From the IMG/VR virus record IMGVR_UViG_2541047746_000007: a stretch of DNA of 29,075 bases; one strand, 5' to 3'. The notes below the pieces were generated by a model. The model had not been told where the DNA came from. It was given only the letters and a program-made list of their open reading frames with translations, and made no database searches. The stretch's first letter is position 1; the number at the start of each line of letters is the position of its first letter. The DNA is from a virus. Taxonomy: Duplodnaviria > Heunggongvirae > Uroviricota > Caudoviricetes. The position numbers and the translations under genes are program-made. Below, one piece after another: positions 15,888 through 21,623 of this stretch.

Positions 15888-15918
15888 ATGATTTTCGCCG
15901 AAGATGGCGACGTAATGC

Positions 15919-15947
15919 TTGCATTTTTCAAAAAATATGGATAAAAT
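15919..15947 (+). promoter_or_regulatory. Candidate late promoter PR' (TTGCAT-17 nt-TAAAAT), probable qut region
   Basis: Promoter-like hexamers 32 nt downstream of the Q stop, followed about 50 nt later by an intrinsic terminator, as in lambda PR'-tR'. Confidence 0.45.
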
Positions 15948-15992
15948 TCTTTCAACGATGGGCTTTATATACCCGACGTTAAGAAAAAGTAG

Positions 15993-16017
15993 AAAACCCG
16001 CTGATGAGCGGGTTTTT
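15993..16017 (+). terminator. Rho-independent terminator (tR'-like)
   Basis: AAAA-CCCGCT-GATG-AGCGGG-TTTTT: 6-bp GC-rich stem, 4-nt loop, U-run. Confidence 0.7.
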
Positions 16018-16302
16018 GTGCTTTAAATAGGGTAATAGAGATGTTGAATCTCATTCCGGGATTCATGTTTGTTTACTTATTATTTATCGGGTGACTTTGC
16101 CTGATGTTTAAAATGTTTTCTTCCAGTGCTATGTCCCTAGATACAATGAGTCTGCATATTACATTATTAGCAGAGCTATTACGGTCAAAGTACAGCATAA
16201 GCTTTTAAAGCCAATCAACCAGTCATCAAGACAGACGGGGTTATTCATGAAAACTCTCCATGTTTGATTCGATGGGGCCTGAAATTAAAGCTTTAATATA
16301 GC

Positions 16303-16515
16303 TCATGAAAGGTAAACATTGGCAGCTGAAGGGCCACGCAGACCATTTATCCGGCAAAATTCCACGCGTAATCCGGTGGTAATTTCTTCTGCATCGCGGA
16401 GATTGAGCGCTGAAACATGAAGCTGGACATCGATACGACCATCGGATGGGGTGATAAGACCCTTGCCGCTTTTGCCGTCAAAGGTTTTGACAATTCCTGT
16501 CATTTTACGGGACAA
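16303..16515 (-). CDS. cspF: Cold-shock-domain protein, CspF/CspH-like
   Basis: 70 aa beginning [26 protein letters not shown] and ending [16 protein letters not shown] start with RBS AAGGAA. Divergent partner of the cspB-like gene. Confidence 0.75.
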
Positions 16516-16815
16516 AAAAATTCCTTAATACTGATAACTGGGCGCACTATACACACGTTCCTGAAGAAAGCTATAGTTTTTTGATGGGGTTGAAGATGGC
16601 TGGATGTCTAAAATAAACATTGCTTCATATGTTCAACTATGCGTTAATGATTGCGTCGGTTTGAAGAACAGACGATATACGAAGTAGTTTACTAAAGCAG
16701 TTCTCATTTCAGGTGTTATTCACTTATTCCTTCTTTGAGTCTCTCCAATTAAGTACGAAGTCGTTTCTGTTATACAAGCCATTTATGCCGAAAGGCTCAA
16801 GTTAAGGAATGTAGA

Positions 16816-17031
16816 ATGTCAAATAAAATGACTGGTTTAGTAAAATGGTTTAACGCTGATAAAGGTTTTGGCTTTATTTCTCCTGTTGATGGTAGTAAAG
16901 ATGTGTTTGTGCATTTTTCTGCGATTCAGAATGATAATTTTCGAACCTTATTTGAAGGTCAAAAGGTTACCTTCTCTGTAGAGAGTGGTGCTAAAGGTCC
17001 TGCAGCAGCAAATGTCATAATTACTGATTAA
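16816..17031 (+). CDS. cspB: Cold-shock protein, CspB-like
   Basis: 71 aa; [38 protein letters not shown] carries the RNP1/RNP2 motifs of CspA-family proteins. RBS AAGGAA. Confidence 0.8.
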
Positions 17032-17312
17032 AATTCATAGTTTGTCTGTATACGATAACGAAGAAGGCTGATGCCTGAGTGGAGATACAGACAGAGTGGT
17101 GAATATTGGATCTCTTTAATAAATAGTAAGGAGGTCCAATACATGAAACAATGGCCAGCATATTTGGCAATAACTTAATCAGGAAAAGTATGCTAACCAT
17201 TGTGGTGAAGTGCAGGTTTGCTGCATGAATAGTTTTACAGCAGAAGCTAACTGCTGGCATAGCAAAACAAAGTGCGTAAGTGGATGACTCCCACAAAAAG
17301 TACCACAATATT

Positions 17313-17337
17313 AAACCCGCTCAGGCGGGTTTTTTAT
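17313..17337 (+). terminator. Rho-independent terminator, possibly bidirectional
   Basis: AAA-CCCGC-TCAG-GCGGG-TTTTTT downstream of cspB, in the gap before the convergent minus-strand zinc-ribbon gene. Confidence 0.75.
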
Positions 17338-17394
17338 TATCTGCTTTAAATATGTTATTAAAATATAAAAAATACTTGTTACGAATAAAATCAA

Positions 17395-17565
17395 TCAAGC
17401 TACAGCTTTAAGATTTGTCTGGAATACTTTGTTGCAATGAGGGCAGATCAAAAGGGCACCTTTTTGTACTCTTGAAAAACTGTGTTCTGACTCTTGGGTG
17501 CAGTTTGGGCAGGAACATTTAACGAGATAATTACGGCGTGATTTTGAGTCTTTACGTTCTGACAT
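17395..17565 (-). CDS. Small zinc-ribbon protein (Cys4, Com-like architecture), function unknown
   Basis: ATG at 17565 with RBS AGGAAAA; 56 aa with CSCPNC...(18 residues)...CPHC. The track ORF (to 17616) is over-extended. Confidence 0.5.
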   Translation of the reverse strand: MSERKDSKSRRNYLVKCSCPNCTQESEHSFSRVQKGALLICPHCNKVFQTNLKAVA

Positions 17566-17783
17566 AGGCTTTTCCTGTATAAATGGCCGTATACAGTACA
17601 CTAAATATGAAAACATATCTCGTATTATTATTTAATATATGATTTTCTTTTAAAATAATTACCCACATTTTTAATGTGTCTGTTTTTTAGCGCCGTTGAG
17701 AACAACGTTTGCTATAAAAACTAACCCATAGACTCCGATCTTTTCAAACATATTGCACCATCTGTGTACATCGGGGTGAGGAT

Positions 17784-17999
17784 ATGAAATCAATGGATAA
17801 GTTAACAACAGGTATCGCCTATGGCACATCGGCTGGTAATGCTGGTTTCTGGGCATTGCAGTTACTCGATAAAGTAACTCCGTCACAGTGGGCTGCAATC
17901 GGTGTGCTGGGTAGTCTGGTTTTTGGCCTGCTGACGTATCTGACAAACCTTTATTTCAAGATTAAAGAAGACAGGCGTAAGGTTGCGAGAAGAGAGTAA
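17784..17999 (+). CDS. Class II holin (EssQ/EssD / phage-21 S-like), dual-start motif
   Basis: 71 aa; [26 protein letters not shown] with two predicted transmembrane segments and a charged C-terminal tail. M1-K-S-M4 dual start as in holin/antiholin pairs. RBS GGGGTGAGGA. Confidence 0.85.
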
Positions 18000-18003
18000 T
18001 CCA

Positions 18004-18555
18004 ATGACACAAGACTATGAACTGGTTGTGAAAGGAGTCCGCAATTTTGAGAATAAAGTGGCGGTAACTGTAGCCTTACGGGACAAAAAACGCTTTGACG
18101 GTGAAATTTTTGACCTGGACATCTCGCTGGACCGTGTTGAAGGTGCCGCGCTGGAGTTTTATGAGGCAGCAGCCAGAATGAGAATCAGACAGGTATTCCT
18201 GGATGTTGCTGCCGGGTTATGTGTAGGGGATGAGCAGTCGCCGGAAAAGCGCCCCATAATTTTAGAGGCGCAGAATGTGTGGATAACCTACAAAGGAAAG
18301 CTACCGGGAAGAATTACTGGTTCTCTGAAGACGCCACCGACGGCATTGCGGTCAGAAAAAGATGATATTGAATCGCCCATTGAAAAACTGGAGGGCAGCG
18401 TCGCTGATCTGAATAAAAAATTGTCGGTGCTGATCCCTTCTGAAGATGAAAAAAAACGCCGCGATGAGCAGTTTGCGGCGTTTTACGATTATTGCATTGA
18501 AGTTACTCGCAGGAATTTTGTGAAGATTTTTGAGGAGGGTAAATCTCTTCAGTAA
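18004..18555 (+). CDS. Hypothetical protein in the lysis cassette
   Basis: ATG at 18004 immediately after the holin stop; 183 aa, acidic and coiled-coil-like. Lies between holin and endolysin, where Qin carries ydfR as I recall. Confidence 0.5.
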   Translation: MTQDYELVVKGVRNFENKVAVTVALRDKKRFDGEIFDLDISLDRVEGAALEFYEAAARMRIRQVFLDVAAGLCVGDEQSPEKRPIILEAQNVWITYKGKLPGRITGSLKTPPTALRSEKDDIESPIEKLEGSVADLNKKLSVLIPSEDEKKRRDEQFAAFYDYCIEVTRRNFVKIFEEGKSLQ

Positions 18556-18763
18556 GCTTAATGGCGGACGCTGCAATTAATTCAGGAAGGTCCGCAAGGT
18601 CATCTGTCAGTGGATATGATGAAAAATCGGCGGCAGTTCTGTTAAGAAGCGCTTTAACTAATTCCTTTTCCTTCTCCGGCAACAAGTTGATTAGAGCTAC
18701 GACTGCTTGCCTGAGTGCGATTAAATCAGCAAAAGTTTGTTTTGGTAGATTTGTGTAATCCAT
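18503..18763 (-). CDS. Hypothetical acidic protein encoded antisense within the lysis cassette
   Basis: 86 aa from the ATG at 18763 with RBS GAGGTG. Helical-looking protein with atypical codon usage (GC3 about 40%). Its 3' end overlaps the upstream plus-strand gene by 53 nt. Confidence 0.35.
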   Translation of the reverse strand: MDYTNLPKQTFADLIALRQAVVALINLLPEKEKELVKALLNRTAADFSSYPLTDDLADLPELIAASAIKLTEEIYPPQKSSQNSCE

Positions 18764-18876
18764 AGTCACCTCTGTGTTTATCAGATTGACATCCTCCTCC
18801 CGCCAGTGCCCATCACTGGTGAGGTAAGATTTAACATATCCGGGGATTTGAAGCCGATAAATCCTGATAAATATCC

Positions 18877-19904
<1,028 letters not shown>

Positions 19905-20267
19905 ATTAATATTAAATCGGATTATTTTTAGCGCTGAATGTGAAATTTAAATAAAAAGGACTCTTCCATGAGTCAAAATCCTTGAAATCTTAAGGGTAAG
20001 ATAAAAGGTCATTAGACAGAATGACACGTTTTATTAATAAATAAAGCTATTGTTTCATTCGTGTGTTTTTCTTTACAAAAGTAATCCTTGCTATGGTTGG
20101 TTAATCATGCGTTAATGGTGTTCTGGTTTGTTACAAAATTATCTGAAGCAGTCATTGTTATAATTTTATTATTTGTACCTCTTGAGATTTCCTTGTTGGT
20201 TTTTCTCTCTGATATTTTTTTTCGGACCATTCTGCCCAAGGGCTAACTTCTTCAAAAGGTAATAATG

Positions 20268-20480
20268 ATGTCTAACAAAATGACTGGTTTAGTGAAATGG
20301 TTTAACCCTGAAAAAGGTTTTGGTTTCATCACGCCGAAAGATGGTAGCAAAGATGTGTTTGTGCATTTCTCAGCTATTCAGAGCAACGATTTCAAAACGT
20401 TAACTGAGAATCAGGAAGTCGAATTTGGTATTGAGAACGGACCTAAAGGCCCTGCAGCTGTTCATGTAGTGGCACTTTGA
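20268..20480 (+). CDS. cspI: Cold-shock protein CspI-like
   Basis: 70 aa; [42 protein letters not shown]...[13 protein letters not shown]. Long AT-rich 5' leader upstream, typical of csp genes. Confidence 0.85.
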
Positions 20481-20685
20481 GGTAGAAAATATTACAAACC
20501 ATATTCACTTTAGATGCCCGTGTTGCCATGGTTCTCAGTATAGAACATCATCTTTTGATGTTTCTGACAGAAATCCTTTCGGGGCAAAATGTATCTTTTG
20601 TAAATCAATGATGATTACATTTGATAATATTTCACAATACTTAAATGTTAGCCATCTGTCGTTAGATTTAAGAAAGTGAAAATGA

Positions 20686-20707
20686 AGGCTCCTTCGGGAG
20701 CTTTTTT
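20686..20707 (+). terminator. Rho-independent terminator downstream of cspI
   Basis: GGCTCC-TTCG-GGAGC followed by TTTTTT. Confidence 0.6.
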
Positions 20708-20751
20708 GCTTAGTGTCTAGTCGATGGATACTCACATATTACGGTAACATT

Positions 20752-20982
20752 ATGAAAAAAATAATAGTTTTTTTTAACTCTGAACCAGCAATGGTAGTGC
20801 CAGTGATGACCGGAGTTAACACCATCATGCGTGAATATCCAAATGGCGAAACAACACACCTCACTGTAATGGCTGCAGGGTTTCCATCTCTGACCGGAGA
20901 TCATAAAGTCATTTATGTAGCAGCGGATCGACATGTAACTTCAGAAGAAATTCTGGAAGCAGCAATGAGACTCTTGAATTGA
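20752..20982 (+). CDS. Hypothetical small protein (moron)
   Basis: 76 aa from the ATG at 20752 (MKKIIVFFNSEPAMVVPVMTG...); weak RBS. Sits between cspI and gnsB, where Qin carries ynfN as I recall. Confidence 0.45.
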   Translation: MKKIIVFFNSEPAMVVPVMTGVNTIMREYPNGETTHLTVMAAGFPSLTGDHKVIYVAADRHVTSEEILEAAMRLLN

Positions 20983-21154
20983 TTTGATTCTAATGCATTG
21001 ATAATAAATGATAATCATCTTTATCTGTTTGTGTGAAATTTAGACCGTCGTATGTTGATTATTGCGATGTTTCATCTTATCTTTTATACGTTTGCTCCAT
21101 ATAATTGACACTACTGTGTACCAGGACAGTCATAACAGACTAAAAGAGGAAATG

Positions 21155-21328
21155 ATGAACATTGAAGAGTTAAAAACAAAAACAGAAGCAGATATTTCTG
21201 AATATATAACAAAAAAAATCATTGAGCTTAAGAAAAAGACCGGGAAAGAAGTTACCAGTATCCAGTTTACTGCACGGGAAAAAATGACTGGTCTTGAAAG
21301 CTATGATATCAAGATTGATTTAATCTAG
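21155..21328 (+). CDS. gnsB: GnsA/GnsB-family protein
   Basis: 57 aa; MNIEELKTKTEADISEYITKKIIELKKKTGKEVTSIQFTAREKMTGLESYDIKIDLI matches the GnsA/GnsB sequence as I recall it. RBS AAGAGGA. Confidence 0.75.
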   Translation: MNIEELKTKTEADISEYITKKIIELKKKTGKEVTSIQFTAREKMTGLESYDIKIDLI

Positions 21329-21623
21329 CATGTTTATAGTATTAGCATCAATTTCTCATCAGATGCTATTCAACAATACAAATTACCCATAAACCTCGTT
21401 TTTACGGGGTTTTGTTATATTTAAACATTACCGAATAGATATAAATCTCGATTGTCAATGGTATTGGTTGTGTGACAATACCTAGTCTTTCCGGTATGCC
21501 TGAAGAGAATACAAACGACAGATTATGTAAGGGAAACGCGCTGAAACTTTCACTCTTTCATGCTGAGTGATTTGACGTTATATTTTTAGCCGCAAGTGAA
21601 GAGCAAACGAATGGAGCGACAAA

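Follow-up and report, generated by a model that had tools for sequence, protein, structure and literature searches.

The 29,075-nucleotide (nt) stretch of viral DNA analysed here (IMG/VR record IMGVR_UViG_2541047746_000007; hereafter the window) is a lambda-like Escherichia coli prophage, with an integrase gene on the left and terminase, portal and capsid genes on the right. We are confident that the 1,896 bp between its late antiterminator gene Q and its holin gene essQ (15888-17783) represent a cargo cassette of the type carried by the Qin prophage of E. coli K-12, comprising cspF, cspB, ynfU and ynfS and placed exactly between the late switch and the lysis cassette, and this confidence extends to the mechanism that we propose for it. 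The initial annotation of this DNA had described an AT-rich island of about 1.9 kb with a divergent cspF/cspB pair between Q and the holin; both genes are indeed there, each matching its family, and the G+C content of the interval is 37.5%, against 47.7% in the remaining window. The cassette is already known, being annotated in K-12 and in thousands of genomes, and cspB has been called a moron on experimental grounds in a homologous prophage. For the most part the result is therefore a confirmation of the textbook view of the lambdoid Q-to-S slot as a hot spot for cargo, filled here with the Qin cold-shock genes instead of a toxin. The orientation of the cargo nevertheless provides a useful correction, since location behind the late promoter does not alone predict expression coupled to induction.

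Content and boundaries of the cassette

The cargo consists of four intact genes, each matching a curated family, of which ynfS, cspF and ynfU lie on the minus strand and cspB on the plus strand (Table 1). Two csp genes and a convergent zinc-ribbon gene had been listed before and all three are present, but ynfS had been missed, and the zinc-ribbon gene is the 56-residue YnfU and not an open reading frame (ORF) of 73 codons. That longer frame (17395-17616) is a mechanical call with no annotation or family behind it, the annotated YnfU start, with its Shine-Dalgarno sequence, being at 17565; a minus-strand ORF of 95 codons at 17021-17308 was likewise set aside as mechanical, having neither annotation nor family support.

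Gene order and orientation are identical in K-12 Qin, ydfT(quuQ)-ynfS-cspF-cspB-ynfU-essQ (b1559, b4750, b1558, b1557, b4776, b1556), where the pR'/tR' sequence is also the same and nucleotide identity over 15001-18209 is 94.6%, so that the comparison with Qin proposed in the initial annotation is borne out. Q and essQ flank the island in the same order in K-12 and CFT073, and relative to K-12 the gene content is orthologous and the island proteins are 0-2 residues apart. Several E. coli chromosomes match the DNA at 100% and CFT073 does so at 99.9%, with RefSeq naming cspF, cspB and ynfU there; at least 80% of the interval is present in 1,411 of 5,426 complete E. coli genomes.

The same island occupies the same slot in the deposited phages 2H10 (99.2% identity), PhiR42_1, PhiR63_1, HannyBb and Tritos (LF82 prophage 3; 93.7%), the range being about 94-99%. 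Tritos lacks 250 bp corresponding to window 16063-16312, that is, ynfS with the last codons and stop of cspF (junction at 1429 of the Tritos stretch); as this deletion is found in a spontaneously induced prophage (PMC9928086), ynfS and an intact cspF are dispensable there. PhiR63_1 and HannyBb carry about 1.7 kb extra in the slot, and in both of them window 15830-15970, comprising the 3' end of Q and pR', is present twice. The duplicated late promoter in these two phages flanks additional small ORFs (1337-2890 in PhiR63_1).

Comparison with phages that carry other cargo delimits the cassette. The Q-pR'-tR' module alone is common to SfV, mEp460, Ayreon, 15 records of Stx2c-converting phages and phiSTEC1575-Stx2k, at 94-96% identity ending near 16020, and homology with the holin module of other phages begins at 17772, 12 bp ahead of the essQ ATG. 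These breakpoints would set the true cargo at about 16021-17771 (1.75 kb). The initial annotation had placed the island between the Q/pR'/tR' unit and the holin; Q and the holin are its flanks, but pR' and tR' (15919-16018) fall inside the interval and not before it. After the shared module SfV has a methyltransferase gene, while phiSTEC1575-Stx2k has small ORFs and regulator genes, three tRNAs, stx2A, stx2B and an iraM-like gene, followed by a class II holin gene. The two breakpoints, near 16020 and at 17772, therefore place the cargo in the same recombination-defined slot as stx, as had been proposed from its position.

Insertion between modules that related phages fill differently is what would be expected of a moron, the class to which the island had been assigned. 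It also has a distinct G+C content and what appear to be its own transcription signals, namely the flanking hairpins, a cspA-type promoter and leader ahead of cspB and a conserved promoter ahead of ynfU, the promoters being predicted from sequence. Autonomous transcription is shown for the Tritos homologue only.

Table 1. Features of the Q-to-holin interval and its flanking genes (window coordinates).
Feature	Coordinates	Strand	Basis
Q, late antiterminator (ydfT/quuQ type)	15135..15887	+	Pfam Antiterm PF03589, E 4.8e-53; PHROG 127
pR', predicted late promoter	15919..15959	+	-35 TTGCAT 15919-15924; 17-nt spacer; -10 TAAAAT 15942-15947
tR', predicted intrinsic terminator	15993..16018	both	hairpin AAAACCCGCT-GATGA-GCGGGTTTT plus T run; terminator scan
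ynfS, small protein of 29 aa	16159..16248	-	Pfam YnfS PF23697, E 1e-21; K-12 b4750
cspF, cold-shock-domain protein, CspF/CspH subfamily	16303..16515	-	NCBIfam CspF NF012007, E 6.6e-48
Predicted cspB promoter, cspA type	16620..16654	+	-35 TTGCTT 16620-16625; 17-nt spacer; -10 GTTAAT 16643-16648; AT-rich upstream element
cspB mRNA with cspA-type thermoregulator (161-nt 5' untranslated region, coding sequence, 3' part)	16655..17094	+	Rfam RF01766
cspB, canonical CspA-family cold-shock protein	16816..17031	+	Pfam CSD, E 8e-32; NCBIfam CspA subfamily, E 7e-42
Predicted bidirectional intrinsic terminator, cspB/ynfU convergent gap	17313..17338	both	terminator scan
ynfU, zinc-ribbon protein of 56 aa (CxC-PxC ... 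CPxC), basic N-terminus	17395..17565	-	Pfam PF23499, E 2.5e-31; NCBIfam NF038384, E 8e-23; K-12 b4776
Predicted ynfU promoter	17586..17625	-	-10 TACTGT 17598-17593; leader of about 21 nt; GGA Shine-Dalgarno
essQ, P21-type (class II) holin, first late lysis gene	17784..17999	+	P21 holin S family PF04971, E 7e-34; PHROG holin

The late switch

Q is homologous to lambda Q, with both halves aligned to chain Q of PDB entry 7UBM (E 3.4e-37) and a further match to 7UBN, and differs from K-12 ydfT at 15 of 250 residues (91.4% nucleotide identity). Relative to lambda Q it carries an insertion of about 40 residues (approximately 121-160) that adds two extra CxxCxGxG motifs, and these may complete a DnaJ-like zinc centre of four motifs (Pfam DnaJ_CXXCXGXG, E 2e-7, below the cut-off). 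A literature search on the function of this Q (quuQ/ydfT) returned nothing usable.

The promoter pR' was compared in a five-way alignment of the window, lambda pR', SfV, an Stx2k phage and K-12 Qin. The -10 hexamer aligns with TAAATT of lambda, and CAACGATGGG, which occurs once in the window, is invariant in all five. Six nucleotides past TAAAAT lies AACGATGGG, aligned with lambda and invariant, for which a role in pausing is predicted by homology; the -10-like pause element AACGAT at 15954-15959 would, again by homology, mark the start of transcription, and the promoter spacer is presumed to contain the Q-binding region. The region 15954-16022 folds at -25.3 kcal/mol (z -5.0; minus strand z -6.1), and the homologous SfV sequence has tR' annotated as a terminator. 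A lambda-type unit, in which a lambda-Q homologue is followed by a promoter with a -10-like element and then by an intrinsic terminator, is thus present in full. Termination at tR' would yield a 6S-like RNA of about 64 nt, and the same hairpin can be expected to end minus-strand transcripts of cspF and ynfS as well.

The hairpins at tR' and at 17313-17338 share a nearly identical stem (AAACCCGCT...GCGGGTTTT), each folding on both strands. The resemblance could reflect the terminator consensus by chance or be left over from insertion of the cassette; a target-site duplication was considered, but the shared stem is short and typical of terminators, too much so to be interpreted. Matches of the island to the Rfam Trp and Leu leaders (E 0.45 and 0.88) were discarded, as they are merely these two hairpins.

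The cargo genes

CspB is 97% identical to its K-12 counterpart (differences Y42F and I55V) and retains all the aromatic and histidine residues of the RNP1 and RNP2 motifs of CspA (W11, F18, F20, F31, H33 and F34). The Rfam model of the cspA mRNA, RF01766, matches at full length with 156.5 bits (gathering score 78; E 8e-42), and the promoter position predicted by us agrees with the start of that model at 16655. The 161-nt leader should make cspB cold-inducible by analogy with cspA; induction of K-12 cspB by temperature downshift is cited within PMC7406224. The hairpin beyond the gene (-15.8 kcal/mol on either strand; z -4.9 and -4.0) is placed such that it would insulate ynfU and the holin from transcription started at the cspB promoter, and would stop ynfU transcripts arriving from the opposite side.

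Divergent from cspB across 300 bp, cspF begins with a TTG codon preceded by an AAGGA Shine-Dalgarno sequence and is identical to K-12 cspF at both the protein and the nucleotide level. The gene does not share the features of a cold-inducible CspA-family gene: relative to CspA its product has lost the aromatic residues that bind nucleic acid (W11T, F18K, F20L, F31Q and F34V, with H33 kept), and no RF01766 match was obtained on the minus strand. In other genera the neighbouring CspF-like genes have without exception lost the same aromatic residues, and CspF therefore represents a conserved divergent subfamily and not a decaying copy. The small gene ynfS is probably co-transcribed downstream of cspF.

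YnfU differs from the K-12 protein at one residue and scores 107.7 bits against PF23499 (cut-off 27) and 79.8 bits against NF038384 (cut-off 36). In the family alignment the cysteines of two knuckles (C17/C19...C22 and C41...C44) are conserved, and they are predicted to bind zinc; the near-invariant core of the family reads RRNYLVKCxCPNC..SEHSF.RVQKG..L.CP.C. At 15 loci from different genera the -10 element (TAnnGT) and the leader of ynfU are conserved and the DNA farther upstream is unrelated. A sequence search of the PDB with YnfU gave no significant match, and a Foldseek search of the PDB with an AlphaFold2 model of moderate quality (pLDDT 67) gave nothing at E < 0.1; the top matches, non-significant at E 0.4-0.9, were zinc fingers like the archaeal ribosome-bound HVO_2753, which may be taken as a weak lead only. 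Assignment of YnfU to a known class of zinc-finger regulator was rejected, the zinc-ribbon Pfam matches (such as YjdM/PhnA and SprT) being below threshold. A role in defence was rejected too: PADLOC gave generic cold-shock-domain matches only (CSD_V, E 9e-6 and 3e-15) and none for YnfU or YnfS, and a match to the effector of retron Se72 was far under the cut-off.

Expression in the lysogen and on induction

The initial annotation predicted that the cargo would be expressed in the lysogen from its own promoters and, being downstream of the late promoter, strongly on induction. The first prediction agrees with published data on close relatives. In the LF82 prophage Tritos cspB and cspI are expressed 59-fold and 93-fold above prophage background, respectively, and both are listed as morons (PMC9928086); the YnfU and YnfS proteins have been detected in K-12 (10.1101/511675); and expression of cspB, cspF and cspI increases in long-term stationary phase, a cspB mutant being a poor competitor (PMC7406224). 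Silence of these genes in both states, named at the outset as the result that would count against the prediction, is already contradicted for the homologues.

The second prediction does not hold for most of the cargo. The genes lie downstream of pR' and tR' and upstream of the holin, as stx does, but only cspB is on the strand of pR', Q and essQ, and the prediction applies to cspB at most. Because ynfS, cspF and ynfU run opposite to the late transcript, an stx-like burst on induction is not predicted for them, and unchanged or lower expression is to be expected. Q-modified polymerase is predicted to make RNA antisense to these three genes and to collide head-on with their transcription. Even for cspB, the thermosensor leader suggests poor translation at 37 °C. 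The searchable literature yielded no induction transcriptome for this prophage or for a homologous one.

These observations can be brought together in a model. In the lysogen pR' would fire and its transcript would halt at tR', leaving only the short leader RNA, while the cargo genes would run from their own promoters, boxed in by the bidirectional hairpins at 15993-16018 and 17313-17338. CspB would be made mainly after temperature downshift and in late stationary phase, supplementing as an RNA chaperone the redundant host set of CspA, CspB, CspG and CspI, and the terminator after cspB would keep cold-induced transcription out of the holin gene. From the shared divergent region cspF and ynfS would be transcribed leftward and could stop on the reverse side of the tR' hairpin, and ynfU would be transcribed leftward from its short-leader promoter beside the holin gene. 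On induction Q would join the RNA polymerase while it pauses at AACGAT in pR', rendering it terminator-resistant, and the polymerase would then cross tR', the 1.75-kb cassette and the cspB terminator to reach essQ and the remaining late operon. The resulting transcript would be sense for cspB alone and antisense for ynfS, cspF and ynfU.

The ynfU-cspB-cspF module in other Enterobacteriaceae

Homologues of YnfU are confined to Enterobacteriaceae. We examined 80 ynfU loci, one per species and related by descent, judging phage context within 5 kb on either side. A gene for a cold-shock-domain protein lies within 1.5 kb of ynfU in 57 of them; by our estimate, the adjacency expected by chance, with nine csp genes per genome of about 5 Mb, is well under 1%. 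The exact architecture, with ynfU convergent with a cspB-like gene that is divergent from a cspF-like gene, is found in 25 of the 80, eight of which adjoin homologues of Q, holin or lysozyme genes; within 5 kb of the other 17, none of the proteins of this phage has a homologue.

Flanking genes vary from genus to genus: SDR, LysR and TPP-enzyme genes in Raoultella, PTS genes in Klebsiella, arsB/arsH/GmrSD in Citrobacter braakii, liv-ynaE ... tRNAs-pgsA-uvrC in Lelliottia and, in Enterobacter asburiae, dbpA-ttcA, which in K-12 is the attachment region of Rac. The Lelliottia module adjoins a gene of the ynaE/ydfK family, in E. coli another prophage-borne cold-shock gene. Within the module, RF01766 scores above threshold on the cspB-like gene at 12 of 15 loci tested, the cspB-cspF spacer is constant at 269-308 bp, and the identities of YnfU and the CspB-like protein co-vary (Spearman rho 0.80, n=37). 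On these comparisons the trio appears to behave as a portable unit that is carried by phages and retained by hosts.

This raises the possibility, which we advance tentatively and with rather more doubt than conviction, that ynfU-cspB-cspF is an ancient, portable functional unit of Enterobacteriaceae, and not cargo assembled at random, in which a thermosensor-controlled CspB, an aromatic-less CspF and a basic zinc-ribbon YnfU act together, YnfU perhaps sharing RNA or ribosome targets with the others or modulating CspB. Such a unit would have been captured by lambdoid phages into the Q-S slot and kept by hosts after loss of the phage, for example at the cspG locus considered below. The linkage of YnfU and CspF to a thermosensor-controlled cspB in many genera gives a testable handle on the functions of these two K-12 genes and an example of prophage cargo that persists as a host locus once the phage is gone, and this side result could come to matter more than the finding itself.

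Alternative explanations

It could be argued that the whole island is stx-like, all of its genes being strongly co-expressed with the late operon by Q read-through from pR', on top of a basal level in the lysogen. The slot is the same, the preceding Q-pR'-tR' module is about 95% identical to that of the Stx2k phage, and cspB is co-oriented with the late transcript. Yet three of the four cargo genes are antisense, whereas in that phage stx2AB and the tRNAs all share the orientation of Q, and the one co-oriented gene has a leader predicted to be a cold-activated thermosensor, from which family knowledge leads one to expect poor translation at 37 °C; we regard this explanation as distinctly improbable. 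A different proposal is that the cassette serves the phage, CspB from the late transcript aiding late transcription or translation, and hence lysis, in the cold, with YnfU and CspF as modulators. CspA-family proteins are antiterminators and RNA chaperones (NCBIfam names; general knowledge), a second cassette, cspI-ynfQ-ynfN-gnsB, with its own RF01766 element lies just past the lysis genes, and cspB is co-oriented with the lysis genes at nine of nine prophage-context loci examined, although these nine are kin by descent and the count is not an independent one. Against this, many Enterobacteriaceae keep the same module, with the same internal orientation, at places where phage genes are absent over 5 kb, which argues for selection at the level of the host. 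K-12 retains it in a defective prophage, and a cspB mutant shows a fitness defect of the host (PMC7406224). A phage-serving role is accordingly unlikely in our view, if somewhat easier to entertain than stx-like control. A reading of the island as junk, decaying in a defective prophage and under no selection for function, can hardly be credited. Its AT-richness, the ydfR pseudogene in the same prophage and the variation among phages (ynfS and the 3' end of cspF deleted in Tritos, 1.7 kb inserted in PhiR63_1 and HannyBb) would fit such decay, but the ORFs are intact, identity to K-12 is 99-100% in the cspF-cspB core against 84-95% in the spacers, homologous modules with constant spacing and co-varying divergence extend into other genera down to about 60% protein identity, and expression and protein detection have been published, so that decay is already contradicted by the conservation and expression data.

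Several points weigh against the reading that we prefer, a Qin-type cargo cassette expressed in the lysogen from its own signals and traversed by the late transcript on induction. The promoters of cspF and ynfU are read from sequence, and a consensus sigma-70 scan gave 6 sites against 6.9 expected in shuffled sequences, hence no enrichment, so the promoter calls rest on homology and not on the scan. The transcript evidence comes from homologous prophages, not from this exact one. The prophage may or may not be inducible; its ydfR is disrupted, and the neighbouring lysis region is unlike that of K-12. Finally, two Csp-responsive mRNAs responded little to overexpressed CspB, CspF and CspH (PMC11648934).

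Neighbouring features of the lysis region

The gene ydfR (DUF1327) is disrupted or extended (18004-18870), the mechanical ORF at 17983-18555 matching the family over its first approximately 119 residues only, and in identical strains RefSeq marks it as a pseudogene. A stretch of about 650 bp (18210-18866) is without equivalent in K-12 Qin and carries, between ydfR and the lysozyme gene, a minus-strand ORF of 88 codons (18503-18769), the RefSeq homologue of which is a hypothetical protein of 86 residues (WP_001306174).

Directly after the lysis genes is a second cold-shock cargo, cspI-ynfQ-(ynfR)-ynfN-gnsB (window 20110-21400), in which cspI (approximately 20268-20480) has its own cspA-type thermoregulator (RF01766 at 20110-20526, 110 bits). 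The lysis cassette is thus bracketed by directly oriented cspB and cspI, the first 115 nt of which are 84% identical.

Comparison with known systems

The closest known relative of the cassette is that of K-12 Qin, in which the cspF-cspB core is 99-100% identical to the window and the spacers flanking it 84-95%. Qin is a remnant, whereas the prophage in the window appears to be complete, having genes for integrase, terminase, portal and capsid, and the two differ further in that ydfR is disrupted in the window and the approximately 650 bp after it are not the same.

With lambda the window shares the arrangement of pR', 6S RNA and tR', a homologous Q, an aligned -10 element and the invariant, pause-inducing AACGATGGG. 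It differs from lambda in the terminated RNA, which is 194 nt there and predicted to be about 64 nt here, in its -35 element TTGCAT, and in Q, where about 40 inserted residues supply two CxxC motifs beyond those of lambda Q. Between tR' and the holin there are 1.75 kb of cargo here, while lambda has orf-64 alone in the approximately 670 bp between Q and S.

Expression of stx cargo depends on late transcription. The likeness of the window to Stx phages such as phiSTEC1575-Stx2k lies in the slot itself, with a homologous left boundary formed by a Q-pR'-tR' module 94-95% identical up to about 16020 and a holin of the class II family on the right. In phiSTEC1575-Stx2k that slot holds tRNAs and stx2AB that are all co-oriented with Q, whereas here three of the four cargo genes are antisense; and whereas the cargo of Stx phages is a toxin, that of the window is a stress module in which each gene appears to have its own promoter and terminator.

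A last parallel is found outside prophages. In the K-12 locus cspH-cspG-ymcF-ymcE-gnsA the divergent cspH/cspG pair is homologous to cspF/cspB, with 76% nucleotide identity over a stretch that comprises cspH, the spacer and 115 nt at the start of cspG. The left side of this locus (1050963-1052240) aligns with window 16307-16930 and its right side with cspI-ynfQ...gnsB (20268-21315) at 73-74%, and it differs from the prophage in having no Q, ynfU or lysis genes and in adjoining IS1 among ordinary chromosomal genes. A cspB/cspI hybrid origin of cspG was examined by sliding identity; the flanks, which match the cspB side upstream and the cspI side downstream, gave a clear signal, the coding sequence an ambiguous one. 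The flanks are suggestive of a locus that could stem from an old recombination between the two csp genes on either side of the lysis cassette, deleting that cassette from a Qin-like prophage.

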